From NCBI GenBank assembly GCA_019421005.1, contig JAHZGA010000003.1, positions 1 to 55,324 on the forward strand: DNA of 55,324 nt, given 5' to 3'. Origin of the DNA: a bacterium. GTDB taxonomy: Bacteria > Bacillota_I > Bacilli_A > RF39 > UBA660. Below are positions 4,876 to 49,732 of the stretch, in pieces (position 1 is the first letter of the stretch; each line of letters begins with the position of its first letter). A program made the translations under genes and the position numbers. The notes under the pieces were generated by a model. That model was not told the DNA's origin, did no database searches, and worked only from the letters and a program-made list of their open reading frames with translations.

Positions 4876-5223
4876 AATATTTTATAAGCCATGTTCTGTA
4901 CCTATTTCTAGGCGACAAACATCTATCTATGAATTAAATTCATCCCATAACCAGTTCTTATTCCCAGTTATTAGGCTCCCCTACCATAATTTGGGTTTCT
5001 CGCTCGTGGGGTTTACCGCGTTCCACTTTTTTAATTTCTTAAAAAAATCGTCACTATGGCACTTTATGTCTAATTTGACCATATCAATGACTTAGGTCAT
5101 TTCGACGCCGTTAGTTAAAAACTACCATAAGTTATTTTTTCCTTATGCACGAACACTACCATCATCACAGATGGTGCGAGCATGGACTTTCCTCTATATT
5201 TCTATAGCGTTTGTCAAAATATT
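4876..5223 (-). ncRNA. rnpB: RNase P RNA, type B (Bacillus-like)
   Basis: The minus strand carries universal and type-B blocks: GAGGAAAGTCCATGCTCGCAC, AAAGTGCCATAGTGACG, GTGGAACGCGGTAAACCCCACGAGCGAGAAACCCAAAT..GGTAGGGG, ATAGATAGATG..TGTCGCC, ACAGAACATGGCTTA. P1 can form between AATATTTT (5' end) and AAAATATT (3' end). Ends are accurate to about 5 nt. Confidence 0.9.
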
Positions 5224-14540: not shown

Positions 14541-14566
14541 AAAAAAACTAAGAATTAAATTCTTAG
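14541..14566 (-). terminator. Intrinsic terminator of the rhodanese gene
   Basis: Minus strand CTAAGAAT-TTA-ATTCTTAG followed by T8. The stem includes the stop codon. Confidence 0.75.
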
Positions 14567-14853
14567 TTCATTAATATCCATCTTTCATATCCGCCTTCAA
14601 TATTAACAATTTTAAATCCTTGTTTTTCTAAAATCATAGCAATATTAACACTTGATTTACCTTTTTGACAATAAATATAATATGTATCATTTTTATTTAA
14701 ATATTTATTTGGATTTATTAATAATTTTTCTTGTGGAATATTTTTAGCTGTTGGAATATGGTTATTATTATATCTTTCAATTGATCTTATATCAATTATA
14801 TTAATTTGCCCCAACATTTTTTTTAAGTCGGATACCATTACACTACCTACCAT
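14563..14853 (-). CDS. Single-domain rhodanese-like sulfurtransferase
   Basis: Rhodanese layout with active-site loop CQKGKSS. SD AGGGTGA before the ATG at 14853. Confidence 0.85.
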   Translation of the reverse strand: MVGSVMVSDLKKMLGQINIIDIRSIERYNNNHIPTAKNIPQEKLLINPNKYLNKNDTYYIYCQKGKSSVNIAMILEKQGFKIVNIEGGYERWILMN

Positions 14854-14917: not shown

Positions 14918-16990
14918 TTAATAATCATCACTGAAGAAGTCATCAAATAGTTGATCATCAGTTACATAACCAGGTTCATGATGTTCTTGTTTAGGTTCAT
15001 TTTTAACTGTTGGTTTTGGTTCAATTGATGGTCTAATTTCAACTTTTGGCTGAATTTCAATTTTAGGTTTAATTTCTTGAACTGGTTTAGTATCTTTCTT
15101 AAGTTGATTTTCTCTTTTTTCTTCTTCCTCTAATTCAGCTATTCTAGCATCAATTTTCTTAACTAATGAGTCCATATCAAATTTATTATTTGATGATGAC
15201 ATACCTCCAAATGGAAACATAGGCGGTTTATCTGATAGAGATTCCATTTCTTGAACCATTTTACTAGCTCTATCTTTTCTTGCTTTTTCAACAAATCCTT
15301 TTAAGTCAAAAACATTTATTTTCTTTTTTTCTCTTTGAGGATAACTTGCTTTAGGATATTTTTTACCCCAAGCATTTTTATTTTCTAATTGCCAGTTGGG
15401 TGTTAGAACTGTTTTAAAAGGCATTTTCCTTAATCTCAAAACAATAACTGACCATTTTTTCATTCTTTGTAGGTCACTTACAGTTACTAGTGGTGTAGAT
15501 GAAGTTTTTTCCTTTTCTTTTGATTTTACTTCTCCACATAATTTACTAATTTCTTCTAGAGCCGCTAATTCTGTACTTATTAAGTAAATTATATTACCAC
15601 AGTTACCCCTAATGGTTTCAGCATTTTCTTTACCATAAACTTCATTTAATTGAGCAAAGTTTTGAATAATAAAGTTAAATCGTATTTTTCTACTTCGAGC
15701 AGCCGTTACCATAGTAGTTACATCTTTTAATGGTGGCATATTAGCAAACTCATCTAGAATAAAATTAGTTCTAAATGGTAATTTACCACCTAATTCTTGA
15801 GCTACGTCAATTAAAGTTTCATAACATTGTTTTATAAAGATTGTTACCAATGAATGGTATGTTTTCTTTTCATCTTGAACAACTAAAAAGACGGCTGTTT
15901 TTTTTCTACCTATATCTTTCATATCAAAATCACTATGAGATAACATTTCAGATAGATTTTCTCTTGATACAAATAATCTTATTTTTTGTCTAAATACAGA
16001 TAAAACACTATCTTTAGTATCTTTAGGAGCATTTATCGTGCTGGCGGCACTGGTATAAACAGTTGAGTTAGGATCCTTTTTTGAAAAGTATTCTTTTATT
16101 ATTGTTGAAGGTCCTAATTTTTCTTCACCAACCGTTGTCATTAAACTAATGCTATTTAGGTTAATTTCTTCTTCTTTGGCATCTTCAAATAGTCCTAGAG
16201 TACATGCTGAAAAATAATCAGCTGATGTTTTTTCCCAGAATGGATCTGAACCACTAGTTTTTTCATCATATAAAATATTTAAGGCTAAATCGTCTACTAG
16301 CTCATTAGCTTTATCAATATTTCCACTTTTATATAATTGATAAGGTAAAGTTAAAGGGTTCCAACAATTACCTTTTTGCGGATTACGGAAGTTTAATAAG
16401 ACAATATTGTAGCCTTTTTCCCTTAATTCATTCGCATTGTTTTCATATATTTCACCTTTAGGGTCGGTTATAATCATTGATTCGCCTTTTTTGGCCAAAA
16501 TTTTTACCATTGGCTGAACAAGCATTTCGGTTTTTCCACTTCCGGTTGAACCAATTATAACATTATGATATTCACTATCATCAACCCAAATTTTTTTTCC
16601 GTTATTTATTAAAGGAATACCAGCATATTGACTTACAGGCGCGCCTGGTAAAACCATTTTCAATTCTTTTTTCATTTCTTTAGGTTCTAGCCAATGGGTA
16701 TAATTACTTTCTTGTTTTTGTCCTACCTTAAACCCAACACCTTTTTCTCTTTCAAATATTTTTGATGATATTCCTGAAATTATAGCAATTAGAAAAACTA
16801 TAGTTATAATCAATGTAGTCCAAAAATATTCACCAGTAAATATTGGTAGCGGGTTTAGACCATGTAATTGACCAGTTCCTCCAAATGTTGTAATATTTAT
16901 AACACCTAATCCAACTATAAAAAATAAAACAATAGCAAATATAATAAAGGCTATTAAGTCTTGTTTTTTTACTCGAATTTTAAATTTCAT
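14918..16990 (-). CDS. Type IV coupling protein (VirD4/TraG family ATPase)
   Basis: Two N-terminal TM segments, Walker A GSTGSGKT and Walker B-like NFILDEFANMP. SD GGTGGG before the ATG at 16990 (track ORF starts at 17020). Confidence 0.9.
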   Translation of the reverse strand: MKFKIRVKKQDLIAFIIFAIVLFFIVGLGVINITTFGGTGQLHGLNPLPIFTGEYFWTTLIITIVFLIAIISGISSKIFEREKGVGFKVGQKQESNYTHWLEPKEMKKELKMVLPGAPVSQYAGIPLINNGKKIWVDDSEYHNVIIGSTGSGKTEMLVQPMVKILAKKGESMIITDPKGEIYENNANELREKGYNIVLLNFRNPQKGNCWNPLTLPYQLYKSGNIDKANELVDDLALNILYDEKTSGSDPFWEKTSADYFSACTLGLFEDAKEEEINLNSISLMTTVGEEKLGPSTIIKEYFSKKDPNSTVYTSAASTINAPKDTKDSVLSVFRQKIRLFVSRENLSEMLSHSDFDMKDIGRKKTAVFLVVQDEKKTYHSLVTIFIKQCYETLIDVAQELGGKLPFRTNFILDEFANMPPLKDVTTMVTAARSRKIRFNFIIQNFAQLNEVYGKENAETIRGNCGNIIYLISTELAALEEISKLCGEVKSKEKEKTSSTPLVTVSDLQRMKKWSVIVLRLRKMPFKTVLTPNWQLENKNAWGKKYPKASYPQREKKKINVFDLKGFVEKARKDRASKMVQEMESLSDKPPMFPFGGMSSSNNKFDMDSLVKKIDARIAELEEEEKRENQLKKDTKPVQEIKPKIEIQPKVEIRPSIEPKPTVKNEPKQEHHEPGYVTDDQLFDDFFSDDY

Positions 16991-17021
16991 TTTATCCCAC
17001 CTTTGCAAAGTGCTTATCAAT

Positions 17022-17050
17022 ATTATATCACAGTTTATAGTTTTTGTATT
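17022..17050 (-). promoter_or_regulatory. Candidate promoter of the coupling-protein gene (extended -10 TGATATAAT)
   Basis: TGATATAAT at 17030-22 with a weak -35 AATACA at 17050-45, about 25 nt upstream of the SD. Confidence 0.4.
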
Positions 17051-17239
17051 GATTTTAGTGTTACAATTAACAATTTTTTTTAATTTATTATTATCTATTT
17101 TATATAAAAAGATTAATATTAAAATTAATCTTTATAGGTCTAAACTATTTTTATTTAATAAAAATTCTTGAATTTTAATTTACTGTCATTGAAAATTTTT
17201 GCCATTTACGGCATTTTTTTTCAATGAATGTTATTTAAA

Positions 17240-17266: not shown

Positions 17267-17902
17267 TTAATTCAAATATGATGTATCACACGGTACAATT
17301 GTTTCAAAATCATTGTTACTTAATTTATACAATCCATAACATAAAAATTTCCCATTAGAATCTTCTTCAGTTATTATTACACCATAATTTTTATTAAATT
17401 TAACAACATTAGTTAAAATGAATTTAATATTATTACTATTTATTTCGCTATATTTAAATGTTTTAATCTCTAATACTTCTTTATCAATATAATAAATAGC
17501 GGAAAATGATTTAGTATTTTTTTCTGTATCAACATTTGAAATGACAATAATTTGTTCTTTTTTTCTATCTTTATCAAAATCAAATGTAACTTTTTGATTA
17601 ATAACTAAATTGTCTAATTTAACATTGAGCTTTTTTTCAAAATATTCTCTATTAATTTCACTAATTTCATTTTCATTATAACTTACATTGTGAAGATTAT
17701 CACTATTATTTAATTTTTGTTTTACTTTTTCAACACCATCAGTAGTTAATTTTAATTTTCCTTCTTCTTTAACAACAGGAAAATAATCCTTAACTACCTT
17801 TTTGGTAGCTTTTGAAACTTGAGTTTGATTAGCAAATAATAAATACATTATTACTAAATATAAACTTAAAATTAATACAACAATAACGTAAGATTTTTTC
17901 AT
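17267..17902 (-). CDS. N-terminally anchored T4SS-associated protein, paralog of the upstream gene (VirB8-role candidate)
   Basis: One N-terminal TM (VIVVLILSLYLVIMYLLF). Shares NQKVTFDFDKDRKKEQ..., FSAIYYIDKEV and C-terminal CYGLYKL...PCD with the 256-aa neighbour. Confidence 0.55.
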   Translation of the reverse strand: MKKSYVIVVLILSLYLVIMYLLFANQTQVSKATKKVVKDYFPVVKEEGKLKLTTDGVEKVKQKLNNSDNLHNVSYNENEISEINREYFEKKLNVKLDNLVINQKVTFDFDKDRKKEQIIVISNVDTEKNTKSFSAIYYIDKEVLEIKTFKYSEINSNNIKFILTNVVKFNKNYGVIITEEDSNGKFLCYGLYKLSNNDFETIVPCDTSYLN

Positions 17903-17903
17903 T

Positions 17904-18674
17904 TTAGTCGCATGCCTTTACTTTTTTATATTTTCCATATTTCAATTGATAAACTTCATAACAATCAATACAGTTATTATCAAAACATGTTTTTTCAACA
18001 AAAATCTCATTTTTACCATTTTTCTTTAAATCTATAATATGTCCAAGTGAATAATTATATCCTTCATATGCCTCATAAATATCAACTATATCTTTAGCTA
18101 AAACCGAAACTTTGTTATTATCAACATAAATTACGAATGAAAATTTTGACTTTGCCTTTACATCATCATATGCATTTGCAATGAAATATAAAGTTTCATT
18201 TTTAGAATCCCCATCAAAATCTAAATTAATTTTTTGATTTAAACTAAATCCTTCGTATTTAGTTATATCATTATCTTTCAAAACATCATTTATAATTTGC
18301 AAATCATCTGAATTTAATTCATCTATCTTATATTCGGGAACGGTATATTTTCTATTACTTTTTATAGCAAATATAGGAGTTGATATTTTAATATATTTAT
18401 CATTTTTATCAAAAACATACCATTTATTTTGATAGAATTTTATTTTATAATTTCCCAAATGTCCATTGGAGTCATACACATCATAAATTTGATTATGGTA
18501 TAGGGAAGTATCATTACTTCCCATATCAACATAACCATTTTCATATTTTATTTTTCCATTTTCACCTAAAACAATATATGTTTTATTCTTAAATAATCCA
18601 AGACCAAAAATTAAAATCATTAATACTAAATACGCGATCAAAACAATACCAATAATTATATATTTTTTTTTCAT
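17904..18674 (-). CDS. N-terminally anchored T4SS-associated protein (VirB8-role candidate)
   Basis: One N-terminal TM and SD AGGTGA. Motifs NQKINLDFDGDSKNET, FSFVIYVDNNKV and CYEVYQL...ACD are shared with the 211-aa neighbour. Confidence 0.55.
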   Translation of the reverse strand: MKKKYIIIGIVLIAYLVLMILIFGLGLFKNKTYIVLGENGKIKYENGYVDMGSNDTSLYHNQIYDVYDSNGHLGNYKIKFYQNKWYVFDKNDKYIKISTPIFAIKSNRKYTVPEYKIDELNSDDLQIINDVLKDNDITKYEGFSLNQKINLDFDGDSKNETLYFIANAYDDVKAKSKFSFVIYVDNNKVSVLAKDIVDIYEAYEGYNYSLGHIIDLKKNGKNEIFVEKTCFDNNCIDCYEVYQLKYGKYKKVKACD

Positions 18675-18684
18675 ATTTTTTCAC

Positions 18685-21600
18685 CTAATCATTCTTTTTA
18701 TAAATTAATATACGATTACAAACAGATGGACCGTATTTAATGTCATTTAGTTTGGTTAATTTACTACCAGGATCAAACATATAAATTGTATCACCTTCAA
18801 CTTTATCAATTGCTACATAGTGACCAAATGATGGTTTAGCTGTTATAACTAAATAATAGTTTTGAGCAATTAATTCTTTAGCCTTATTAGCTACATCGCT
18901 CCAACTTTTCGGATTAAATCTATAATCATCAACAAATTCAAAATTAGGAGCAAGTCCGGTAAATCTTGGAGCATCCCAGTAAATACCATTACCATCAAAT
19001 CCACCATGAGCACTTAAGTGTGCGACAAATGTACCAGGATTTAAATTAGGTATTGTAACTTCAGTTCCTGATCTAGCGATTTGAATTGCAACTGATGTCG
19101 CTGCACATCCGATTTTACATATGCTAGATGAACCTAATGAATCATTAGACCATGACATTCCACACTGTTTCCAAGTTGCAAAATCTCCACTAGCTGTATA
19201 ATTACTTGGACCACATGCACTAGCTGTTGTACTATTAGAACTTTCTATAATCCATACACCATTGTTTATTTTTCCAACATAATTACTAGCTATAGTATCT
19301 TCTTTATAATATCCTGTTCTTTCACGACTAGCGGAATCCAAAACTTTGATCTGACCTTCTTCATTAATTGAAGATAAAACCACATAATGTCCGCCTGTTG
19401 TTGCCCATTTATCTGTTCCTGGATCCTGTTTATTATGATATTCAATACCATGGTAATCAATTCCTGTTTCGTTATCAACTAATGAGGCTATTATCATTTT
19501 ATTAGCCTTTAATGCTTCTTTAATCTTATTCATTATTTCTGCATTTGATGGTTTCGAAGAAACTGATCTATCCCATATTTTGGTAACATTGATACCAAAT
19601 TTTTCTTTTAATCCAGCATCAGAATAAATCTGCCATTTTGTTCCGCTATTAGGCACTCGATAATCAGTATTATTACATACCCAATCAGCTACTGTTACTG
19701 GTGTTATTGAAGGATTATTATTCAAAGTAGCAGCTGCCATAGCGATTGAGGTTATTGAACATCCACTTGTACTTATAGTAGCTGGATATTCATGACAAAC
19801 TTTTCCATTAGTTTCATATGATGCTATCATTGACTCACAATATGCATCATTATAATCATGTTGATTATAATATATATCCTCACTTGCTCTAGTAGAGGTT
19901 TGGGTTGAATTACTTGATGAACTATTTGAATTATCAGTTGAACCTGTGTTAGCTTTTATTGCATCCAAAGTTGGATTAGGATCAATTGGACTATTAGAAG
20001 AATCACGAACTTCAAAATGTAAATGATTTCCAGTAGATGTTCCTGTTGTACCAACTTTACCTATTTCTTGTCCACCATTTACATGGTCGCCTTCTTTTAC
20101 TAAATATTTAAGCATATGTGCATATAAAGTATAATATTGATAAGAACCATCACTTTGCTTATTATGACCTATTATAACGTTATTACCATAACCAGTTGTT
20201 AAACTTTGAACTCTAGTTACATCTCCGTCAGCAATTGCATAAATACTTGTTCCTTCTGCAGCGGCATAATCTATACCAGTATGCATTTTTCTTTTCTTTG
20301 ATATAGGATGGATTCTTTCACCATATGGAGATGAAATTCTTTTATAGTCTGTTATTGGTAAATGTGAAGATCCTGCAATACCTGCTATAAAATTATCTGA
20401 AGAAGCTGTACAATTAGATGTTATTTCTTTATCAGTCCCATAAAATGATTGCAAAGCAGCATAATAATCGCCACCAGAGCTTACAGTCGCAGCCCATTGA
20501 TTTTGACCACTCTTTTGAGTAAAATTAGTATAAAACATATTTCCAGTTCCGTCAACTAAAACTTGACCTGCTACTTGATCTAGATTATTTTCAAATGTCG
20601 TTAACGCATCACCTGTTAGACCACTTTTCCAGCCAGGAACACCTTGAACATATTCCGAAACTTTACCTCCACCTCTTGAACAACCATTTTTATAATCACA
20701 ATAAACTTGATCATTTTCACAAGCACGCATTCTTATTGTATTAGTTCCTTTTTGATATCCAACAAAACAGTCATATTGTTTAGATGGACACATCGCACCC
20801 CCGCGTGTAAATGCAAAAGTTCTTGCAGCAACCGCTTGAGCTTTTTGCACTTCAGGATCGGACTCCGAAGAAACTTCAGCATATACAACACCTTTAATAT
20901 AATCTTCTAAATCAAGCGTCATTAAAACAGTGCTATTACTTTTCTTTGTTGCATTACAATTTATTAACTCAACTTTTACATTGCTGACAGTTTGTCCATC
21001 AATATTATATGAACAGTTAGTTCCACCACTTGATAATTCACATTCATTTTTATCTTCAAACCAATATGTATAGGCATCTACCTGTTCATGGATATCATCA
21101 ATTATTTTTTGAATCTGATCTTCTTCATCATCTGCTCCTGGTGTATAATATGCACTTAAATATTTAGGAATATATTCATCCCTTAAGTAATCATCGTATG
21201 CTGAATTTTCATCAGCACAATTTCCTTGTTCCATTGCTTTAACTAATTTTTTAGTTCTTTTTTTCACATCTTTTAAAACATCATCTGATTGTTCACCCTC
21301 TGATTGTTCTTCATCTGTTTGCTCTTCTTCGTATGTATATTCACTTTCTTCATCATATATCTTATCTAAACTATCATCATAATTTAGTGTTGCCAATAAC
21401 AGTTTCATGTTTAAACCATTTGAACAACTTGATTTTTCATTATATTTCTGAAGTTTCTCCATGAATTTAGCTTGATTGGAATCTTTAGGGGCAATATCTG
21501 TTATATCTTTATCATTACCTTTAAACCATTCAATAACAGAATATATTGGTTCCATTTTTGCATACAATGATTCACTTAATACAAAAATACTTAAGAATAT

Positions 21601-22182
21601 AACTATTAAAGCAATTAAAATTATAATAAGTGGCAATAATTTTTTTAAAAGTAACATCATTCTAACTTTACCACTTATTGAATCATTTTTTGCTGGACCT
21701 TTATTTCCAAATAAACCTAAATTTTTAAATATGCCATTTTCTTTAGATAACCCTTCTTTATTGGGTAACCCCTTTTCATTGGGTAATTCTTCTTTTGATA
21801 GCTCACTATTTTTAGAACTTCCAGTATTATTTCCACTAGGATTATTTTTTTTATTTGGTGCTCCTCTTCTAAAATTAGTTAATCTATCAGCTTTATCTAA
21901 AAGTCCTTTATTATTAGCTTTTTCTAAAGCTTTAGACGCTAACGGATTTCTATTTATAGTCTTACCAGATGTATCTAGAATTTTTTTACCGGCTTTTGTT
22001 TTAGAGGCTATATCAACCGCTTTACCACCTAAAGCCCCTCCAAAATATGTACCAGCAGCTTTAGCTCCTAATTTAGCAGCTTTAGCTCCAGCTTCTTGTT
22101 TAGACTGTTTTTTAGCTGCTTTAGGATCTACTTCTTGTTGAGGATTAACCTCTCGATCATTTATATTATTATCATTTGGCAT
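18685..22182 (-). CDS. Multi-domain membrane-anchored peptidoglycan hydrolase (VirB1 role): SpoIID-like + M23 + two papain-fold (C39-like) Cys peptidase domains
   Basis: 1165 aa with a TM at aa 174-203. SpoIID-like EVQKAQAVAARTFAFTR...DQVY. M23 HTGIDYAA...GNHLHFEV. Two Cys/His modules: SGCSITSIAMAA...GGHYVVL and CKIGCAATSVAI...FGHYVAID. SD AGGTGAGG. Confidence 0.85.
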   Translation of the reverse strand: MPNDNNINDREVNPQQEVDPKAAKKQSKQEAGAKAAKLGAKAAGTYFGGALGGKAVDIASKTKAGKKILDTSGKTINRNPLASKALEKANNKGLLDKADRLTNFRRGAPNKKNNPSGNNTGSSKNSELSKEELPNEKGLPNKEGLSKENGIFKNLGLFGNKGPAKNDSISGKVRMMLLLKKLLPLIIILIALIVIFLSIFVLSESLYAKMEPIYSVIEWFKGNDKDITDIAPKDSNQAKFMEKLQKYNEKSSCSNGLNMKLLLATLNYDDSLDKIYDEESEYTYEEEQTDEEQSEGEQSDDVLKDVKKRTKKLVKAMEQGNCADENSAYDDYLRDEYIPKYLSAYYTPGADDEEDQIQKIIDDIHEQVDAYTYWFEDKNECELSSGGTNCSYNIDGQTVSNVKVELINCNATKKSNSTVLMTLDLEDYIKGVVYAEVSSESDPEVQKAQAVAARTFAFTRGGAMCPSKQYDCFVGYQKGTNTIRMRACENDQVYCDYKNGCSRGGGKVSEYVQGVPGWKSGLTGDALTTFENNLDQVAGQVLVDGTGNMFYTNFTQKSGQNQWAATVSSGGDYYAALQSFYGTDKEITSNCTASSDNFIAGIAGSSHLPITDYKRISSPYGERIHPISKKRKMHTGIDYAAAEGTSIYAIADGDVTRVQSLTTGYGNNVIIGHNKQSDGSYQYYTLYAHMLKYLVKEGDHVNGGQEIGKVGTTGTSTGNHLHFEVRDSSNSPIDPNPTLDAIKANTGSTDNSNSSSSNSTQTSTRASEDIYYNQHDYNDAYCESMIASYETNGKVCHEYPATISTSGCSITSIAMAAATLNNNPSITPVTVADWVCNNTDYRVPNSGTKWQIYSDAGLKEKFGINVTKIWDRSVSSKPSNAEIMNKIKEALKANKMIIASLVDNETGIDYHGIEYHNKQDPGTDKWATTGGHYVVLSSINEEGQIKVLDSASRERTGYYKEDTIASNYVGKINNGVWIIESSNSTTASACGPSNYTASGDFATWKQCGMSWSNDSLGSSSICKIGCAATSVAIQIARSGTEVTIPNLNPGTFVAHLSAHGGFDGNGIYWDAPRFTGLAPNFEFVDDYRFNPKSWSDVANKAKELIAQNYYLVITAKPSFGHYVAIDKVEGDTIYMFDPGSKLTKLNDIKYGPSVCNRILIYKKND

Positions 22183-22202: not shown

Positions 22203-23987
22203 TTAATATCCCCCACCTGAACCAAAAGAATCTAATTCTTGTTCAGTTACAACAACTTCTATTTGCATTCTTCTACTACCGCATACAAATAAAGCTTCAC
22301 CTTGATTATATCTTTTTATATTTTCTCTTTCATTATCATTTAAGTCAATTAATTTTGATAAATCTTCAACTGCTTGTTTTTTTAGTCCCATAACTAAATA
22401 ATATGAAGCATTATCAAATATAGCTTTTCCTTGAGTTATTACAGAAGGATCACTGAAATCACTTGGTTGTTGAGTTATAATCATTGTACCTGTATTATAT
22501 TTTCTCGAACGTCTTTGGATTTGAGCCAAGAAATCTGCTCCTAGCTTATTTCCACCACTCATTAAAACATGAGCTTCATCAACCATTAAAATAGTATTTA
22601 TTGTTCTATCTAAAGTTAGTCCCCATGCATATTTTAATATATTGAAGAACAAAGCATTTCTAACATTTTCATCAGCATTCATTAATTCTTTTATATTAAA
22701 TACAATAAAATCACTATTAGGACTTATAGTTGTATGACCATCAAAATAATATCTTAATTCTTTAACAATCGGTCTTACTTTTAGTTCCAATTTTTCCATA
22801 ATATCACGTTCATGAGTTTTTTCAGTCATTGATAATAATCTACCCTTAATTGTTGCATATACATCAGTAAAAGTTGGATAATCTTTAGAGGTAAATTTAG
22901 TAAAATCAGTTGAAAAATCCATTCCAAAACGTCTATATGTTTCTTGAATTATCTCACTGAAAAGTGTTACTACATCATCTTCAACATCAGGTGAATAATA
23001 TTTAAAAAATGCTTTAGATGTTTGTAATGCTCTTGTTAAAACAGCATAGCCTAATCCTTGTTTAGCCTCTTCTTCATCATAATCCAAGACTACTTCCAAA
23101 GGATTGACCATTCCATATTCTCCACCTTTTCCTAAATCGATATAATCTCCACCATATAATTTTACCATCTCATCTAATTCACCTTCAGGATCAATTACAA
23201 TAATTTGATGATTATTTCTTATATGAGTTCTCAATACTAATTTAGCAGCTGTAGATTTACCTGAACCAGATGTACCTAAAATTATCATATTGGCATTATT
23301 TCTATTATGCTCTTTTTTTATTTGATATAAAAATTGATTAAATAAAATTACTCCGCCTGAAAAATCAACTCCAAGTAAACAAGATAATCCTGGGTCTTTT
23401 ATACTATCAAAAACAAAAGGATACATGGCTGCTAAAGTTGGTGCTGGAATTGGAGTTCCTATATGATCTTCAATTGCTTGTTTTGGATAAATTGGTAGAA
23501 TAGATTTTAAAACTTTTTCTTGTTCAAAACGAAGTGGAAAAGCTCGCATTTCCATTGCTTCAACATAGTTTTTAACTTGTAATTTTTTGGCTATCAACTC
23601 ATCTTCAGAATTAGCTGTAATCATAATATGTAATTGAAAATCATATATTTTAGATTGATTAGCTGCTAATTGAGAGATGAATTGTTCCAAAGATTCATAA
23701 TCTTGTCTAATCATTTCTTGTCTAGTTCTATCATACTCTTCAGTATATTTTACCTTTAAATCTGCAATTTCTTTATTTAACATCTTTTGAATAACACTGA
23801 AAGGTAGAGGAATATGTTTTGCAACAACCTTAATACCTGACATTTGAGTTAATGATGATAAATATCCAGTATTTATGTATTTTGGATAAGAAACAACCGT
23901 TAAGATAGTTGCATATTTATCACTTATTATAAATTCACTAGGTTTAAATTCTAAACCTTTAGGGGCAATTTCCTTTTTTATATTCAT
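22203..23987 (-). CDS. VirB4-family T4SS ATPase (TraE/TcpF/PrgJ-like), lacking the usual N-terminal ~180 aa
   Basis: Walker A GTSGSGKST and Walker B ILMVDEAH. The entry APKGLEFKPSEFIISDKYATILTVVSYP is typical of the region after the N-terminal domain in Gram-positive VirB4 proteins. Confidence 0.9.
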   Translation of the reverse strand: MNIKKEIAPKGLEFKPSEFIISDKYATILTVVSYPKYINTGYLSSLTQMSGIKVVAKHIPLPFSVIQKMLNKEIADLKVKYTEEYDRTRQEMIRQDYESLEQFISQLAANQSKIYDFQLHIMITANSEDELIAKKLQVKNYVEAMEMRAFPLRFEQEKVLKSILPIYPKQAIEDHIGTPIPAPTLAAMYPFVFDSIKDPGLSCLLGVDFSGGVILFNQFLYQIKKEHNRNNANMIILGTSGSGKSTAAKLVLRTHIRNNHQIIVIDPEGELDEMVKLYGGDYIDLGKGGEYGMVNPLEVVLDYDEEEAKQGLGYAVLTRALQTSKAFFKYYSPDVEDDVVTLFSEIIQETYRRFGMDFSTDFTKFTSKDYPTFTDVYATIKGRLLSMTEKTHERDIMEKLELKVRPIVKELRYYFDGHTTISPNSDFIVFNIKELMNADENVRNALFFNILKYAWGLTLDRTINTILMVDEAHVLMSGGNKLGADFLAQIQRRSRKYNTGTMIITQQPSDFSDPSVITQGKAIFDNASYYLVMGLKKQAVEDLSKLIDLNDNERENIKRYNQGEALFVCGSRRMQIEVVVTEQELDSFGSGGGY

Positions 23988-24532
23988 CCTATCACCGTCC
24001 CAAAATTAGTTGTTTGTCCAGCGTTTAAGAAATTATCCAAAATAAGTCTTAAATCTTCATTTGTTACTTGATGTGAATTTAATCCAGCATTTGCTAAACT
24101 TGTAATTAAATTTCTTAATTTTTTTCCTATTAATTCTTGATCCTTTTCTTTAAATAAAATAAAGTATTCTGTATCAGCAACATTATTGCTAATAAACATT
24201 CCTATTTTATTAATATCTTCATTTATCATTTTTCTTCTTATAGGGTCATTAGTGTTATTAAACAGTAGTTGTAGTTCAGCTTGATAAGCATTTATATCTA
24301 CTGGTCTATCTGCTACAACTAACCAAAATTCATAGTCAATTTGATTATAAACATTTTTTAGATTATCTATTACTGCCATTTGAGTGCTATAATCACTTAT
24401 GAAAATATTTCTTGGTAATATTTTCACACCAGTTACATTTAATCTATTATCTAATAAAATCATTCCATTATTAATTGCTCTTACAGGAATATCATCAACT
24501 GTATATTTACTTCTTACTTTTTTTTCTGACAT
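23984..24532 (-). CDS. VirB4 N-terminal-domain-like protein (separate ORF, ATGA overlap with the ATPase ORF)
   Basis: 182 aa from the ATG at 24532. DDIPVRAINNGMILLDNRLNVTGVKILPRNIF...EFWLVVADRPVDI resembles the N-terminal module of full-length Gram-positive VirB4 proteins. Its stop TGA overlaps the next ATG. Confidence 0.65.
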   Translation of the reverse strand: MSEKKVRSKYTVDDIPVRAINNGMILLDNRLNVTGVKILPRNIFISDYSTQMAVIDNLKNVYNQIDYEFWLVVADRPVDINAYQAELQLLFNNTNDPIRRKMINEDINKIGMFISNNVADTEYFILFKEKDQELIGKKLRNLITSLANAGLNSHQVTNEDLRLILDNFLNAGQTTNFGTVIG

Positions 24533-24827
24533 CGTAATAACTCCAACCTTTCCATTCAAATTTTTGATTATTAGTATAAAAATCAATTATAGCTTTTAAA
24601 ATAGTTAACATATTATGATAATTAGGAACTGGTAATACCAGAAATCCTGTTATTAATCCTGGGGCAATTGCTAGTAGCGCAACTGTTAAACTTTTTAGAG
24701 GTAAGACTAGTAATAATATAAAAGTTACTACTAGTCCACTTCCAAATAAAATTAAATCAAATTTATTAAACAAACCAAATATTAGCATTGATTTTTTACT
24801 ATTAGCTGGAATTAAATATCCATTCAT
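24507..24827 (-). CDS. PrgI/VirB3-like small membrane protein
   Basis: 106 aa from the ATG at 24827 (SD AGGTGAT). YLIPANSKKSMLIFGLFNKFDLILFGSGL followed by two TM segments. It sits directly upstream of VirB4, as in other Gram-positive T4SS. Confidence 0.6.
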   Translation of the reverse strand: MNGYLIPANSKKSMLIFGLFNKFDLILFGSGLVVTFILLLVLPLKSLTVALLAIAPGLITGFLVLPVPNYHNMLTILKAIIDFYTNNQKFEWKGWSYYDVRKKSKK

Positions 24828-24892
24828 TAGTATCACCTATCCTTTTTATCTATTTTTTCAAAATACAAAGTGTTTATAACAGATCTAATTTA

Positions 24893-26809
24893 TTACTGTT
24901 GTTGTCTTCCTCTATTAGCTGGGTTATTAGGACTATTCTCCCATTCAACTCTTGCATCAGCGTTCATTAAACGTGCGTCTCTTTCAGTAATCTGTTGATC
25001 TGATCCAGTTCCCGTATTTCGATTGTTACTATTATTATTATTATTTACATTAGAATTAATTCCTTGAAAATCACTATCAGTTGCGAGATCTGCCATTGCC
25101 CTATCAGCTTTTCTTATATCTGCTTTGGCACTCTCATCAATTCTAAATTGAGTTTTTATTGAATTAATTTGATCACTATAAACATTCGCCATAGATTTAT
25201 ATCTAGCAGCTTTACCAAATAATCTTTCTGCTTCGCTTTGATTTCCAGACTGTGCTGCTTGTTCAGCTTGAGCCCTAAAAAGATCTGCCGCATTCGATGC
25301 TGTATTTCTTTTTTCCTTTAAAACATCCATTTCAGCTTTAGCTCCTTTTTTTCCACCTAAAGTGTCGTAAACAGACCACGTTTTAAAATCCTTACCGAAC
25401 ATTCCTTTTGCTACGTTATTAGCACCTTTAGAAAACGATCCAAAGAACCCATCTTTTTCAGTTACACCTTTATGTCCAGTAAGTAGTCCTCCAACAGCAC
25501 CTCTAAATGCATGACCAGATTCTTTACCATATTTGGCGCCTGCATAAACTGCTCCAGCTGTTCCAACTGTTTTAGCAACACCAGGAACAGATGCTAATTT
25601 CTTGCTAGGGTTTAAAGTAAATCCGCCATCTAATTTAACGCCTATGATATTTTCAATTAATTTAGGTAATTGTTTTGCAAATAATAATGCTCCAAAAATT
25701 ATAAATATATAGATTAAGGAATTATGAATAAATCCACCACTTTGATCGGATACATCACCTTTAACATTAATATACATTTCAGGTAACATTTGAACAACAT
25801 ATAATGCAAAGAAAATAGCAATTAATCTTATAAACAAATCAAAATATGTTGTTAAGCATTGCTTTACCCATTTTTTAAAAATTCCACTACTTTTTGGCTC
25901 AGCATATGTAACAATAGGAATAGGTGCAATTAATTGTAAAAATGCTAACTTAACCAATCGTACAGCTATATCAAAACAAAACATAACCAATATCCAGGCT
26001 AAAAATCCGCCAGCTATTAAAGCCATAATTCCATGAAAATTAAACGTTGCTACCTTTTCGCCATCAATTTCTGATTTTGCTTTTATAATATCTGTATCAG
26101 TCAAAATATTGATATTCGTATCCTGATAAGCATATGATAATACATCAGAAATTTGTCCATCAAATGATGTACCAGTTGCAGCATTCAAAACTTCAGCGCA
26201 TTCATCTCTCATTACTAAATCTGAATTGCCTATATCATGCTTTGAATCAATTACCTCTCTTATATCAGAATTATCAGCTCCACTAAAAAGGTTATAACGA
26301 CATTCTTTGTTCTCGTCACTATTAAATATTGCAGGATTTGGTCCATAAAAAACTGATAAAGTCATAAAAGCCATATATTCTCCTTCGCTTTCGTAAGAAA
26401 TTACATCTCCTTGTTCCTCTTGACCAGCACCTAAAAAGAAATTAGGTATAACATTATTGGTCAAAATTAACCTTTGAATTTTCATTCCCATATCAAAGAT
26501 AAATGGTATTGAAACTAGTAAAATTAGCACAACACAAATATTCAAAACCAACTTTCCAATACCCTTATTCTTATCAGTAAACAAATCAGGATTTACTATA
26601 TAAGATATAAGTGAAAAAGTTAATTTAAATAACATTAATATTGCCAAAAGAACATATATTCTTGAACTGAAATCAGAAAATTGACTTTCAGTAAATAGTT
26701 CAACATTGGTTAAATCTATCAACAAATCATAAGCTTTTTCAGCAAACCAGAATACTGTGTTATCAAGCCATAAGAAGACTTGTTGAATTAAGGTAAGTCC
26801 CGAAAACAT
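24893..26809 (-). CDS. VirB6-like polytopic membrane protein with a long G/A/K/N/Q-rich C-terminal tail
   Basis: 638 aa with at least six hydrophobic segments and one large loop. The tail is about 230 aa and hydrophilic. SD GAGAGGTGA. The position between pilin genes and VirB3/VirB4 is typical. Confidence 0.65.
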   Translation of the reverse strand: MFSGLTLIQQVFLWLDNTVFWFAEKAYDLLIDLTNVELFTESQFSDFSSRIYVLLAILMLFKLTFSLISYIVNPDLFTDKNKGIGKLVLNICVVLILLVSIPFIFDMGMKIQRLILTNNVIPNFFLGAGQEEQGDVISYESEGEYMAFMTLSVFYGPNPAIFNSDENKECRYNLFSGADNSDIREVIDSKHDIGNSDLVMRDECAEVLNAATGTSFDGQISDVLSYAYQDTNINILTDTDIIKAKSEIDGEKVATFNFHGIMALIAGGFLAWILVMFCFDIAVRLVKLAFLQLIAPIPIVTYAEPKSSGIFKKWVKQCLTTYFDLFIRLIAIFFALYVVQMLPEMYINVKGDVSDQSGGFIHNSLIYIFIIFGALLFAKQLPKLIENIIGVKLDGGFTLNPSKKLASVPGVAKTVGTAGAVYAGAKYGKESGHAFRGAVGGLLTGHKGVTEKDGFFGSFSKGANNVAKGMFGKDFKTWSVYDTLGGKKGAKAEMDVLKEKRNTASNAADLFRAQAEQAAQSGNQSEAERLFGKAARYKSMANVYSDQINSIKTQFRIDESAKADIRKADRAMADLATDSDFQGINSNVNNNNNSNNRNTGTGSDQQITERDARLMNADARVEWENSPNNPANRGRQQQ

Positions 26810-26822
26810 TTAATCACCTCTC

Positions 26823-27707
26823 TTAATAATCAGTTTTCACACCGCAAAAGATACTATCTTTATCAACATTATCGAAATCTATTTGAGTTAATACGAACTT
26901 AACTAATAGCGGTAATAATAATAATAACGCTAAAGCTACTATACGTCTAATAAAATTTTTCCAAGCTTTTTTCATCCCGTCATCTTTAGCGCCAGTAACA
27001 GCTCCTATAAAATCTTTTATTCCTAAAATCATTGTTAAAACGAATGCTGCAACAATAGCTAAATATAAAACTTTACTTATTTCATCGGCAACCTCTTTTG
27101 GAACCAATCCACACCCTTCTACCATTTCAGCAGTAGTGTTAGATTGTGGCTTATTACTATCTTTAACATACTTCTTTTTAAAATCTTCAATAGTTCTATC
27201 GCCTTGTCGATTATCATCCGCATCATCAGCATTTTTCCCACCAGATACAGCTGCAAAATTATAATATTTACATTTGTTTTTATCATCACCACAATACTTT
27301 TTCAATGTAGAACTAGGATTTTTTTTTGTTCCAGCTCCCAAATATCCTACTGAATTAACTTTTCCAGTTATTCCGCTTGAAGTTTGAGTATCAACCGTTA
27401 ACATCAGTTTAGGACATTTTTTATTCTTTAGCACCCATTCTTCAATTGATTTTTGGTTTTTTTCATCCAACGAAACACTATATCCACTACCTGGAGTAAG
27501 TGTAGTTTCTATTTTTTTTCCACCATTTGTTGCTTCAAACCTTACTCTGTGATATATTTCATGAATAACCTCATAATCACAAGCAATTGCTGCATATTTT
27601 TCTCCTTCAACAGAAAATATATTATTATTTTCATCACCTTTTACATTACCAATAAATAGAAATGAAAAAGCTATAATTATAAATCCTAATAAAATATTTT
27701 TTTTCAT
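26823..27707 (-). CDS. Secreted Cys-containing domain fused to a C-terminal VirB2-like two-TM pilin module
   Basis: Signal peptide MKKNILLGFIIIAFSFLFIGNVKG and a domain of about 170 aa. The following CG..TM..KDDGMKKAWKNFIRRI..TM..C module aligns with the two small pilin-like proteins. SD GAGGAGTG. Confidence 0.6.
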   Translation of the reverse strand: MKKNILLGFIIIAFSFLFIGNVKGDENNNIFSVEGEKYAAIACDYEVIHEIYHRVRFEATNGGKKIETTLTPGSGYSVSLDEKNQKSIEEWVLKNKKCPKLMLTVDTQTSSGITGKVNSVGYLGAGTKKNPSSTLKKYCGDDKNKCKYYNFAAVSGGKNADDADDNRQGDRTIEDFKKKYVKDSNKPQSNTTAEMVEGCGLVPKEVADEISKVLYLAIVAAFVLTMILGIKDFIGAVTGAKDDGMKKAWKNFIRRIVALALLLLLPLLVKFVLTQIDFDNVDKDSIFCGVKTDY

Positions 27708-27814
27708 TTATATCACTCCTCGTAATATAATAATTACAATTATACATAATATATTATAACATAAAAAAAAGCAATAATATATACCTTATTATCACTTTTT
27801 TATTTTTGTTATAT

Positions 27815-28138
27815 TTATGCTTTTAAAATTTTATCAATACATTCAACAATATTACTTGAAGTTCCACCTTCAACAACTAAACCTACAACAAACTTAACAA
27901 TAACTACTACGAAGAATACAATTAAAGCCGCCAACAGTCTTGATAGAAAAGTTTTCCAACCTTTTTTTATATCATCTTCTTTTTGTTGAATAACAGCTTT
28001 TCCTAAATCTAACATTCCCCAGACAATTAATAAAATAGGAACACCTATATATATAAAGTTTATTACCATCGCTACTATATGTGCCAGTTGTTGAGGAATA
28101 CTAACTCCATCTCCACACGAAATATCTAATATAAACAT
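27815..28138 (-). CDS. VirB2/TrbC-like pilin-type protein, paralog 2
   Basis: 107 aa with two TM segments separated by the basic loop QQKEDDIKKGWKTFLSR. SD GAGGAGG. Shares YIGVPILLIVWGMLDLGKA with paralog 1. Confidence 0.6.
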   Translation of the reverse strand: MFILDISCGDGVSIPQQLAHIVAMVINFIYIGVPILLIVWGMLDLGKAVIQQKEDDIKKGWKTFLSRLLAALIVFFVVVIVKFVVGLVVEGGTSSNIVECIDKILKA

Positions 28139-28164
28139 AATTAAACCTCCTCGTTTCTAAATAT

Positions 28165-28193
28165 ATCTTACTTTAATTTTAAATATTTGTCAA
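28165..28193 (-). promoter_or_regulatory. Candidate internal promoter before pilin paralog 2 (TTGACA-17-TAAGAT), -35 inside a 7-bp inverted repeat
   Basis: TTGACA at 28193-88 and TAAGAT at 28170-65. tgtcaat (28188-94) and attgaca (28208-14) form an inverted repeat overlapping the -35. Confidence 0.45.
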
Positions 28194-28255
28194 TATAATA
28201 ATTTAAAATTGACACTTATTTACTTAATTTATCATTATATTATTCATTATTTTAT

Positions 28256-28576
28256 TTAATAATCAATTAACTTATCAACGCATTCCGAAACACCATACAT
28301 TCCTGGTAAATCTGCTTTAGCTAAAATTCCTAAAACAAATTCTACTGCTACTGCTATAAAAAATACTAAAACAGCACTTAATAAACGTTTAAAAAACATT
28401 TTTTGGTGTTTCTTAATTTCATCTTCTTTCTGACTAATAGTTGCTTTTCCTAAATCTAACATTCCCCAAACAATTAATAAAATAGGAACACCTATATAAA
28501 AAGCCTTAATTAACATACTTACAATAACAGCTATTGTTTCTGGAATAGTAAAAGTTCCACAAGTAATATCTAGCAT
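28256..28576 (-). CDS. VirB2/TrbC-like pilin-type protein, paralog 1
   Basis: 106 aa with two TM segments, a basic loop SQKEDEIKKHQKMFFKR and SD GAAGGAGGG. It is the first gene of the cluster. Confidence 0.6.
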   Translation of the reverse strand: MLDITCGTFTIPETIAVIVSMLIKAFYIGVPILLIVWGMLDLGKATISQKEDEIKKHQKMFFKRLLSAVLVFFIAVAVEFVLGILAKADLPGMYGVSECVDKLIDY

Positions 28577-34652: not shown

Positions 34653-36128
34653 TTATAAAACAATGGCAAATAAGTTTCCAGAACCTTTATTAACCAATTT
34701 GGTTAAAGTTTGTTGTAATTTAAATCTAGCATTATCCGGCATCAAAGAAAGTTTGGCTTGTATTCCCTCTTTTACAATTACATCTAAACTTCTTCCAAAA
34801 ATTTCGCTTTTCCAAATATTATCAGGCGAAGTATCATAATCACGCATTAAATAGTCAATTAACTCTTTACTTTGAATTTCTGAACCAATTATCGGCTCAA
34901 ATGTACTTTCAACATCTACCCTAATCATATGTATTGATGGGGCAACAGCTTTTAATTTTATTCCATATCTACTACCTTGTTTAATTATTTCAGGTGTATC
35001 AAGTTTCATATCGGCTAAAGTTGGCGCTGCAACTCCATAACCTGTTTGTTTTACCATTTTAAGTGCCTCTTTAATTTGATCATATTCCATTTTAGCTTCA
35101 TTGTAATCTTGAAATAAAGTTAATAATTGTGATCTATTTGTTATATCAACACCTATTATTTCTTTTAATACTTGATTATATAATCCTTTAGGAGCATCTA
35201 AATTCAATGTTACTTCTCCTGTTGAAGTGTTAACTTCTGATAAATATGATTTTTCTATATACTCACAATCTTTAAAATAATTTTGGATATTTTCAATATC
35301 CCTTAACTTATCAATTTCTACTACACTTTCTTTTATTTTTTCTATATAAATTTTTTTCAACCAATTATCTTTAGATAAGCATGCTATCCAATCAGGCATA
35401 TTAACATTAACTTGAGTAACTGGAAATTCATATAATGCTTCTCTTAATATTGAATAAATATCTCTTTCTGTCATATTTTCAACACTTATTGGCATAACAG
35501 GTACTTTGTAATTATCATGTAATTCTTCTGCTAATCTTTCAGTTTCTGGTAACATTGGATGAGTTGAATTTAATAAAACTATAAATGGTTTTCCTATTTC
35601 AGTTAATTCATTAATAACTCTTTGTTCAGCCTCAACATAATTTGATCTATTTATCTCTCCTATTGTACCATCAGTTGTAATAACTATTCCTATTGAAGAG
35701 TGATCCTTAATAACTTTTTCTGTTCCTATTTCAGCAGCTTCAACAAATGGTATTTCTTCATCATACCATGGTGTCTTAACCATTCTAGGTCCATTTTCAT
35801 CTTCATATCCTTTCGCGCCATCAATAACATATCCAACACAGTCAACTAATCTTATATTAGCATCAAATGTATCTATATTAATTTTAGCAGCATTACTTGG
35901 TACAAATTTAGGTTCAATTGTCATAATTGTTTTCCCTTGAGCTGTTTGAGGTATTTCATCCAAAGCTCTTTTACGTTCGTATTCATCAGCAATATTAGGT
36001 ACAACTAAATTTTCAATGACTTTTTTTATAAAGGTTGACTTGCCAGTTCTAACGGCACCTACTACTCCAAAATAAATATCGCCATTGGTTCGTTCTGTTA
36101 AACTTTTAATAATGTCTAATTTATCCAT
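34653..36128 (-). CDS. spoIVA: Stage IV sporulation protein A (spore coat morphogenetic ATPase)
   Basis: MDKLDIIKSLTERTNGDIYFGVVGAVRTGKSTFIKK matches the SpoIVA N-terminus and Walker A. The ATG at 36128 was chosen over the track start 36155, which has no SD and sits at or upstream of the predicted transcription start. Confidence 0.9.
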   Translation of the reverse strand: MDKLDIIKSLTERTNGDIYFGVVGAVRTGKSTFIKKVIENLVVPNIADEYERKRALDEIPQTAQGKTIMTIEPKFVPSNAAKINIDTFDANIRLVDCVGYVIDGAKGYEDENGPRMVKTPWYDEEIPFVEAAEIGTEKVIKDHSSIGIVITTDGTIGEINRSNYVEAEQRVINELTEIGKPFIVLLNSTHPMLPETERLAEELHDNYKVPVMPISVENMTERDIYSILREALYEFPVTQVNVNMPDWIACLSKDNWLKKIYIEKIKESVVEIDKLRDIENIQNYFKDCEYIEKSYLSEVNTSTGEVTLNLDAPKGLYNQVLKEIIGVDITNRSQLLTLFQDYNEAKMEYDQIKEALKMVKQTGYGVAAPTLADMKLDTPEIIKQGSRYGIKLKAVAPSIHMIRVDVESTFEPIIGSEIQSKELIDYLMRDYDTSPDNIWKSEIFGRSLDVIVKEGIQAKLSLMPDNARFKLQQTLTKLVNKGSGNLFAIVL

Positions 36129-36158
36129 ATAATCCCTACTTTCATATTGTTTCATTAA

Positions 36159-49497: not shown

Positions 49498-49732
49498 ATT
49501 GGTAATAATAAATCTAAAGATAATTTTAATAAATATTGACTTAAATATATATACAGTAGTTACTGAAATAATTATTAAAAAGTTTGATTTGTTAAGTTTA
49601 ATAAATTGAAAAACAAATAACTTGGTTACAAAAAATATGGCTTTGATAAAAAAGTGGCAAAAAAGCGGCAAAAATTTTTTGAACAACTATCACTCTATTA
49701 TCTTTTCAAAGATAGTAGATAGGAGTGATTTA

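Follow-up and report, generated by a model that had tools for sequence, protein, structure and literature searches.

Pilin-like proteins with a conserved terminal cysteine pair head a chromosomal type IV secretion cluster in an uncultured Bacillota lineage

Analysis of a 55,324-nt stretch of contig JAHZGA010000003.1 (assembly GCA_019421005.1, positions 1 to 55,324; hereafter the window), from a bacterium of the RF39 lineage of Bacillota, uncovered three tandem genes that encode paralogous two-helix hairpins with a basic loop and open a type IV secretion system (T4SS) gene cluster. Two of the proteins are small and leaderless, while the third carries the hairpin behind a secreted domain. We read the three proteins as pilin-like subunits on the surface side of a monoderm T4SS of the mating-pair formation FATA (MPF-FATA) type that is chromosomal and apparently lacks a relaxase; they would form N-out/C-out hairpins with disulfide-tied tails, and we put the probability of this reading at roughly 0.55. 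Paralogy, topology signals, T4SS synteny, cysteine conservation and strain-level hypervariability are directly supported by the data described below.

All three genes lie on the minus strand, each with a GGAGG-type ribosome-binding site 6–9 nt 5′ of the ATG. Pilin-like protein 1 (28256–28576, 106 aa; E-value 2e-37 with a hidden Markov model (HMM) of the family) is composed of an acidic N-tail with Cys6, a first transmembrane segment (TM1), a basic loop, a second transmembrane segment (TM2) and a C-tail with Cys99. Protein 2 (27815–28138, 107 aa; E 5e-43) shares this layout, with Cys8 and Cys100. Both open reading frames (ORFs) are maximal stop-to-stop frames, and therefore no upstream leader can be encoded; the earlier note on this DNA, made by a model from the letters alone, had rightly called these copies leaderless, with a first cysteine at residue 6–8. 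The third gene (26823–27707, 294 aa; E 6e-22 on the module) encodes a fusion protein comprising a Sec-type signal (residues 1–24, 27707–27636; MKKNILLGFIIIAFSFLFIGNVKG/DE), a variable ectodomain with four cysteines (residues 25–198, 27635–27114; Cys43, Cys98, Cys139 and Cys146) and a pilin-like module (residues 199–294, 27113–26823) bracketed by Cys199 and Cys288, as the note's description of a Sec signal followed by a cysteine-containing domain had it.

A three-way alignment delineates a common module of ~95 aa, running from the N-tail cysteine through TM1, the basic loop and TM2 to the C-tail cysteine. The two small proteins share 54% identity (E 3e-31), and an alignment of the 107-aa with the 294-aa protein covers residues 202–273 of the latter (29% identity, E 1e-9). 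In profile-profile comparisons, the fused module of the 294-aa protein's own family matches the stand-alone family at 97.9% (E 3e-13), and leaderless modules of the wider family match ectodomain-fused modules with 100% probability (E 1e-45). The family HMM recovered exactly these three copies from a six-frame translation of the window, so that coordinates, alignment and HMM together confirm the three ORFs and the layout with a bracketing cysteine pair that the note had described. Homologues of the full 294-aa protein are few (only five found, with 32–39% overall identity), and they (P0122–P0125) share an identical 26-residue signal peptide (100%) and a conserved C-terminal module, with the ectodomain in between replaced. 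AlphaFold2 (AF2) modelling of the 294-aa protein from five sequences gave a predicted local distance difference test score (pLDDT) of 44.7 and an unreliable ectodomain model, and a phmmer search of PDB sequences with this protein returned no match.

The AF2 model of the 107-aa protein, built from a 63-sequence alignment, contains helices at residues 16–50 and 54–91 and a short C-terminal helix (mean pLDDT 76.6). Charge distribution was evaluated in 248 leaderless sequences, which are the 249 distinct leaderless modules minus one that does not match the parsing pattern. Their N-tails average 19 residues with a net charge of −1.5, and 62% are devoid of lysine and arginine; the loop spans 24 residues with six lysines or arginines and a net charge of +2, and the C-tail has a net charge of −2.3. 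These charges clearly follow the positive-inside rule, which would place the loop inside and both tails outside. In addition, the cleavage site of the Sec signal in some relatives lies only a few residues ahead of the N-side cysteine, and other relatives carry N-terminal ectodomains; the module is therefore oriented N-out independently of the charge pattern, which supports a location of both cysteines outside the membrane. The two-helix hairpin with a basic loop and net negative tails that the earlier note had envisaged is upheld by the model and the charges, and its proposal that both cysteines face the same, outer side is strengthened by the Sec-signal and ectodomain fusions.

Conservation of the cysteine pair, which the note had seen in three copies, extends across the family, far exceeds chance and is essentially invariant: in 471 distinct modules the N-side column is 97% cysteine and the first C-side column 98% cysteine, and most apparent exceptions trace to truncated ORFs or shifts in the alignment. 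About two-thirds of these modules also have a further CxxC...C pair. Of 119 small homologues, 115 have an even total of cysteines, as do 114 of 128 mature fusion proteins (binomial p 1e-20), and the count for the ectodomain only is even in 121 of the same 128. Since the ectodomain alone is even in cysteines, the module cysteines would therefore pair among themselves. Cysteine counts are also even in the other exported T4SS proteins of the operon. An extracytoplasmic disulfide between N-tail and C-tail would be the most economical reading of these sequence patterns.

The family is large and unannotated. A word-indexed search for homologues of the 107-aa protein returned 193 sequences, all nameless or annotated ‘hypothetical’, and a profile search of 1.84 billion cluster representatives recovered 8,773 of them at E ≤ 1e-3, of which 4,160 also pass E ≤ 1e-10. 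Homologues come from metagenome-assembled genomes (MAGs) labelled Bacilli, Mycoplasmatota, Tenericutes or Firmicutes, and a tblastn search against 72,556 plasmids gave no real match. Pfam and NCBIfam scans placed none of the three window proteins in a family above its cut-off. Members fall into three classes: leaderless proteins of ~105–135 aa, often starting with MFILD; proteins of ~130–180 aa with a Sec signal, the N-side cysteine a few residues later and then the module; and proteins of 180–580 aa with a Sec signal, a variable cysteine-rich ectodomain and the module. The hairpin core is conserved across the family, with invariant Pro, Gly, Asp, Lys and Arg residues. The extreme N-terminus of the leaderless proteins (window positions 28124–28138 and relatives) is also conserved (MFILD or MLxxL; an MFIL start in 37 of 120 sequences), although only a short tail outside the membrane would be expected there, and could be an insertion or processing signal, or could serve in β-strand pairing as in the AF2 model. 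With thousands of clusters involved, defining the family would improve the annotation of many gut MAGs.

Arrays of one to eight module copies were found in 79 loci from GTDB species genomes, all uncultured gut Bacilli or Mycoplasmatota MAGs, and with few exceptions these arrays lie directly upstream of the genes for VirB6, VirB3/PrgI, TrsD and VirB4, the wall hydrolase and VirD4. A crude classifier assigns one or more leaderless copies to 78 of the 79 loci, and the trio seen in the window, a leaderless protein, an ectodomain fusion and VirB6, is a recurrent core. In ten larger arrays (L016, L031, L034, L036, L045, L047, L048, L055, L061 and L072), a conserved bitopic, cysteine-containing protein of ~365 aa is encoded between Sec-signal pilins and a leaderless pilin (e.g., L047 8807–9907); this protein is absent from the window.

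In the window, the operon runs from the three pilin-like genes through VirB6, VirB3/PrgI, TrsD and VirB4, a wall hydrolase and two bitopic proteins to VirD4, all on the minus strand. The VirB6-like polytopic protein (24893–26809, 638 aa) has a hydrophilic extracytoplasmic loop with two cysteines at about residues 113–255, and its best NCBIfam matches are MMCAP2_0566 (E 7e-10) and Mbov_0396 (E 2e-9), both below cut-offs. The next gene encodes a small VirB3/PrgI-like membrane protein (24507–24836; Pfam PrgI E 0.024, with PF26592 PrgI_like matched by the orthologue in L080, a sister strain). Both the VirB6-like gene, following the pilin array, and the VirB3/PrgI-like gene are present in 58 related loci. 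The N-terminal domain of VirB4 is encoded as a gene of its own, specifying a TrsD-like protein (23984–24586, with a likely start near 24532; NCBIfam VirB4_plasma positions 88–278, E 2e-13), which overlaps by ATGA the gene for a 594-aa VirB4 ATPase (22203–23987; Mbov_0397 VirB4 family E 4e-108 and 362 bits against a cut-off of 590, CD1110 E 5e-52, and Pfam AAA_10 and P-loop_TraG). A frameshift as the origin of this split was ruled out, as the gene is split in all 54–55 related loci that carry it and never fused.

Downstream lies a 1165-aa cell-wall hydrolase (18685–22182) with SpoIID, peptidase M23 and C39-like domains and a VirB1-type function, followed by a pair of bitopic paralogues (256 and 211 aa; 17267–18674; 26% identity), each with an N-terminal transmembrane anchor and an ectodomain with four and two cysteines, respectively. 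Neither protein has a Pfam or PHROG match, and a phmmer search of PDB sequences, conducted for the 256-aa protein only, returned no match; from architecture only, they are possible candidates for VirB8-like components. The last gene encodes a 700-aa VirD4-type coupling protein (14918–17020; Pfam T4SS-DNA_transf E 2e-54, TrwB_AAD_bind and TraG-D_C). The earlier note had placed the three genes in a conjugation setting, which stands insofar as they head a T4SS operon but is not otherwise evident, as the cluster is chromosomal, no relaxase is encoded in the 55-kb window and neither a relaxase nor an integrase adjoins the T4SS genes. Mobile elements are represented in the window only by an IS21 element (IstA/IstB, 49622–51710), ~20 kb from the cluster, and a Mutator-family transposase fragment at the window edge (190–645). 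The cluster is therefore described here as chromosomal and apparently relaxase-less, and not evidently as a conjugation system. The presence in the window of SpoIVA, RecU, DnaD and a class-B RNase P indicates that the host is a member of the Bacillota with a cell wall.

This gene content resembles that of the T4SS of Patescibacteria, which derives from MPF-FATA systems and includes TrsD (a homologue of the VirB4 N-terminal domain), VirB4, PrgI/VirB3 and VirB6, along with arrays of 2–11 divergent VirB2-like pilin genes; it is in most cases encoded on the chromosome and has no relaxase (Quinonero-Coronel et al. 2025, PMC12102498). The same study left open whether the Patescibacteria pilins came with the monoderm system, MPF-FATA systems being said to lack pilins (PMC12102498). 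According to a December 2025 review, Gram-positive T4SSs have neither VirB2 nor VirB5, the one exception being Patescibacteria, whose possible pilus it calls ‘intriguing’ (PMC12857230); this agrees with the note's remark that Gram-positive conjugation systems are considered pilus-free. The window cluster shares with the Patescibacteria systems the monoderm MPF-FATA-like build, separate TrsD and VirB4 genes, PrgI/VirB3 and VirB6, tandem genes for small, divergent two-helix proteins, a chromosomal location and no relaxase nearby. Unlike in Patescibacteria, the host belongs to the Bacillota, none of the window proteins reaches the cut-off of PF18895, the Pfam family of the Patescibacteria pilins, the majority of copies have no leader, the N/C cysteine pair is nearly invariant, the hairpin is often fused to Sec-exported cysteine-rich ectodomains, and a large wall hydrolase and VirD4 are part of the cluster. 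We therefore regard the window array as the probable Bacillota counterpart of the Patescibacteria VirB2-like pilin arrays, with the missing leader, the cysteine staple and the ectodomain fusions as its distinctive traits.

The module also resembles the VirB2/TrbC/TraA pilins (PF04956) in size, in its hairpin of two hydrophobic helices with a short basic loop, in having both termini on the same side, which according to the AF2 model, the charges and the Sec-signal and ectodomain fusions is the outer one, and in a gene position ahead of VirB3, VirB4 and VirB6. The long cleavable N-terminal leader typical of VirB2 is lacking in the two small proteins and present, as a Sec signal, in the 294-aa protein and many relatives. 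The nearest precedent for the proposed terminal staple would be the head-to-tail cyclisation of TrhA in the H-pilus and TrbC in RP4. Cyclisation of TrhA has been confirmed by cryo-EM and is needed for biogenesis of the H-pilus (PMC12037004). Unlike in cyclic TrhA and TrbC, the proposed link is a disulfide where they have a peptide bond, a search of the window turned up no cyclase-type peptidase such as TraF, and there is no outer membrane to cross.

Several results weigh against the pilin-like reading. The earlier note had assigned the hairpins to the VirB2/TrbC family, and this assignment failed at the sequence level: none of the three window proteins matches PF04956 at E ≤ 1, and HHalign comparisons of the 63- and 471-sequence family alignments with 120 Agrobacterium-type VirB2 sequences, which represent only the Agrobacterium/Rhizobiales branch of PF04956, gave probabilities of 0.06–0.13%. 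A profile search of PDB sequences with the family returned no pilin. Foldseek comparison of the AF2 hairpin with the PDB returned only generic two-TM hairpins (HtrII and ATP-synthase subunit c, E > 4), a result that is uninformative for so small a fold. PF18895 (T4SS_pilin) is matched by neither of the two small proteins, and by the 294-aa protein with 20.3 bits (E 6e-4), which falls short of the 26.6-bit cut-off. A thiol oxidase is likewise missing from the window, and the host appears to be a gut anaerobe, which leaves the source of an oxidant for the disulfide in question. To our knowledge, filaments have not been observed for systems of this kind, Patescibacteria included.

PF18895 is the most frequent Pfam match of the family, hit by 29 of 63 sequences at E ≤ 0.1 and, with a limit of E ≤ 0.01, by 35 of 149; the best E-value is 9.5e-7, and a consensus of the fused modules reaches 28.3 bits, above the cut-off. 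Hydrophobic hairpins of this kind, however, recurrently match unrelated transmembrane families at E 1e-3 to 1e-6 in Pfam hmmscan, so that sub-threshold matches need a reversed-sequence control. In that control PF18895 was matched by none of 99 reversed modules, whereas the unrelated DUF973 was matched by 49 of them, with E-values down to 7.7e-6; the size and recurrence of the PF18895 scores therefore lie within the noise for this composition, which counts against the pilin-like reading as well. The real sequences, for their part, match the nematode transmembrane family DUF621 about as often as PF18895, and also 7tm_1. Initially taken as good evidence, the recurrent PF18895 matches were accordingly downgraded to context-dependent support. 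The link now rests mainly on a coincidence, namely that the top forward match among ~25,000 families is a T4SS pilin and that the genes concerned head a T4SS operon, a further reason for caution. Homology of the module family to PF18895 is probable but unproven, and homology to known pilins is not established.

Comparison with the sister strain L080 revealed a hypervariable cassette (window 24893–28138, L080 2022–5534) inside an otherwise 97–100% identical operon. Identity is 98.8% for LigA, 100% for pilin-like protein 1, 98% for VirB3, 100% for TrsD, 99.5% for VirB4, 97% for the hydrolase and 98% for the two bitopic proteins, but it falls to 71% for pilin-like protein 2, 63% for VirB6 and 37% for the 294-aa fusion protein, whose ectodomain has no nucleotide similarity to its counterpart. 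In VirB6, divergence is concentrated in residues 81–200 (28–48% identity), which form the hydrophilic two-cysteine loop between transmembrane segments, and in the C-terminal tail (residues 561–638). Such a pattern is expected of exposed, interacting surface parts; it fits an interface between pilin and VirB6 and, equally, a recognition or exclusion role without polymerisation.

The second of these options, in which the proteins are membrane-anchored surface proteins that do not polymerise, the hairpin being an anchor or a dock for VirB6 and the whole serving strain-specific recognition, adhesion or exclusion in co-evolution with the outer loop of VirB6, is in our judgement unlikely, though it draws on several of the same results. 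It would account for the joint variation of protein 2, the ectodomain and the VirB6 extracytoplasmic loop against a 97–100% identical background, for the large variable cysteine-rich ectodomains of many members, and for the negative outcome of the searches for homology to proven pilus subunits. VirB6-type proteins are also known as targets of exclusion proteins, in ICEBs1 (YddJ/ConG) and SXT (Eex/TraG). However, the leaderless copies are almost without ectodomain and yet form the most conserved, near-universal class (78 of 79 loci), one of them is 100% identical between the strains, the hairpin core with its invariant residues is conserved far beyond the need of a mere anchor, and tandem small hairpins beside VirB6 and VirB4 are the very pilin signature reported in Patescibacteria.

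The integrative and conjugative elements (ICEs) of Mycoplasma bring a different role to the fore. Mbov_0395, Mbov_0396 and Mbov_0397 (CDS15, CDS16 and CDS17 of ICEA in M. agalactiae) follow the same order as the window genes, a small transmembrane protein, a VirB6-like protein and VirB4, and these families are the best NCBIfam matches of the window VirB6-like protein and VirB4, all below curated cut-offs. Mbov_0395 is named ‘pilin-like’ by NCBI; its model (NF045849), a check suggested in the earlier note, came out negative, as it matches none of the window proteins at E ≤ 1 and only 2 of 63 relatives, weakly (best E 0.007). The Mycoplasma ICEs are mobile, wall-less and without a hydrolase, whereas the window cluster is chromosomal and belongs to a walled host.

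The literature describes CDS15, whose gene precedes that of the VirB6-like protein, as resembling VirB3 and not a pilin, and Gram-negative VirB2 is needed for the channel even where no pilus is made (PMC12857230). Together with the proximity of the window VirB4 and VirB6 to the Mycoplasma ICE families, these facts would suit integral translocon subunits comparable to PrgF, TcpD/TcpE or Mycoplasma CDS13/CDS15, which never leave the membrane and in which the cysteine pair only stabilises the hairpin. We consider this improbable, because a separate VirB3/PrgI-like gene is already present and because a copy number of one to eight, hypervariability and ectodomain fusions are unusual for a channel part of fixed stoichiometry. 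Paralogy with VirB3 was itself rejected, the family and the VirB3/PrgI-like proteins of the same loci being unrelated (HHalign probability 0.4%). Finally, that these are small membrane proteins with no connection to the T4SS genes beside them (holins, bacteriocin immunity proteins or cargo), as a two-TM layout with a charged loop common to some holins and the lack of any curated family claiming the three proteins might suggest, is very hard to credit, given VirB6/VirB4 synteny in essentially every locus with enough flank, no PHROG match at E ≤ 0.01, no lysis or bacteriocin genes near the array in the window, neighbours that are T4SS and housekeeping genes, and no plasmid match; the holin-like alternative that the earlier note had named as its possible refutation is thereby disfavoured.

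For pilin-like subunits, a pathway can be proposed from these observations. The two small proteins would insert into the membrane without a leader, and their short, acidic, lysine- and arginine-poor N-tails would suit Sec-independent N-tail translocation of the YidC type. Once outside, the cysteine pair may be oxidised to give a pseudo-cyclic subunit, as conservation and parity suggest. By analogy with VirB2, the VirB6/VirB4 machinery might then take up the membrane pool into a wall-spanning fibre or conduit. The 294-aa protein would be a minor subunit that joins or caps the structure through the same hairpin and presents its variable, presumably disulfide-rich ectodomain for partner recognition. 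We infer the pilus, the disulfide and the tip or adhesin role from the features described above. A comparable arrangement is known from the Trw system of Bartonella, where tandem genes encode sequence-variable surface subunits (trwL, a VirB2, and trwJ, a VirB5) that are read as variable adhesive pili (PMC12857230); unlike the window cluster with its VirD4, Trw is Gram-negative, has canonical VirB2 and VirB5 and lacks a coupling protein.

A bolder proposal, which we hold tentatively and regard as possible rather than probable, is that a widespread uncultured lineage of gut Bacillota builds a genuine VirB2-type pilus through the Gram-positive wall. Its subunits would be leaderless and closed by a disulfide, ectodomain-pilin fusions would act as strain-specific tips or adhesins matched to the hypervariable VirB6 loop, and the system would be a relative or the source of the essential T4SS of Patescibacteria. 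Reviews hold Gram-positive T4SSs to be VirB2-less, and this locus puts a pilin-like array into a Bacillota T4SS of Patescibacteria-like build; the origin of the Patescibacteria pilins therefore becomes directly testable. In its near-invariant terminal cysteine pair the family has a natural counterpart to the closure of head-to-tail cyclic pilins, and one that is simple to approach by experiment. The hypervariable cassette of protein 2, ectodomain and VirB6 outer loop points to the parts that would contact partner cells, and to a pilin-VirB6 interface like that proposed for R388.

Possible signs of exchange between the two small genes were also recovered. A 56-nt block covering the end of TM1 and the start of the loop in the gene for protein 2 (27996–28051, minus strand) differs by 1 nt from its partner copy in the gene for protein 1 (28443–28498, minus strand), and codon identity at identical residues is 89% inside this block compared with 42–58% outside, so that synonymous sites are conserved as well. 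Reciprocal chimeras of the two genes (P0002, P0003 and P0008) occur on short metagenomic contigs; these could stem from recombination or gene conversion, or be artefacts of assembly. At the other end of the operon, similarity between L080 and the window stops just after the 211-aa gene (L080 13297–13597, window 14918–17186), where L080 has an AAA_14/DUF4143 ATPase gene in place of VirD4, so that the coupling-protein end differs between the strains.

The cluster lies between ligA and a group of rhodanese, pyrG and hup genes. Elsewhere the window is housekeeping in content (rny, recA, pgsA, recU, a class A penicillin-binding protein, nth, dnaD, cca, spoIVA, der, folD, pcrA and class B RNase P), and the lineage is low in GC (~26%) and small-genome-like. 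Class B RNase P RNA lies at 4880–5222, the gene for SpoIVA, the ATPase of sporulation coat morphogenesis, at 34653–36155, and a gene for a Fic-domain protein at 52353–53090. The rhodanese gene, which encodes a single-domain protein (14563–14853, minus strand), stands after VirD4 and recurs downstream in three further loci (L010, L022 and L028); its link to the cluster could be due to chance or could be related to thiol chemistry.

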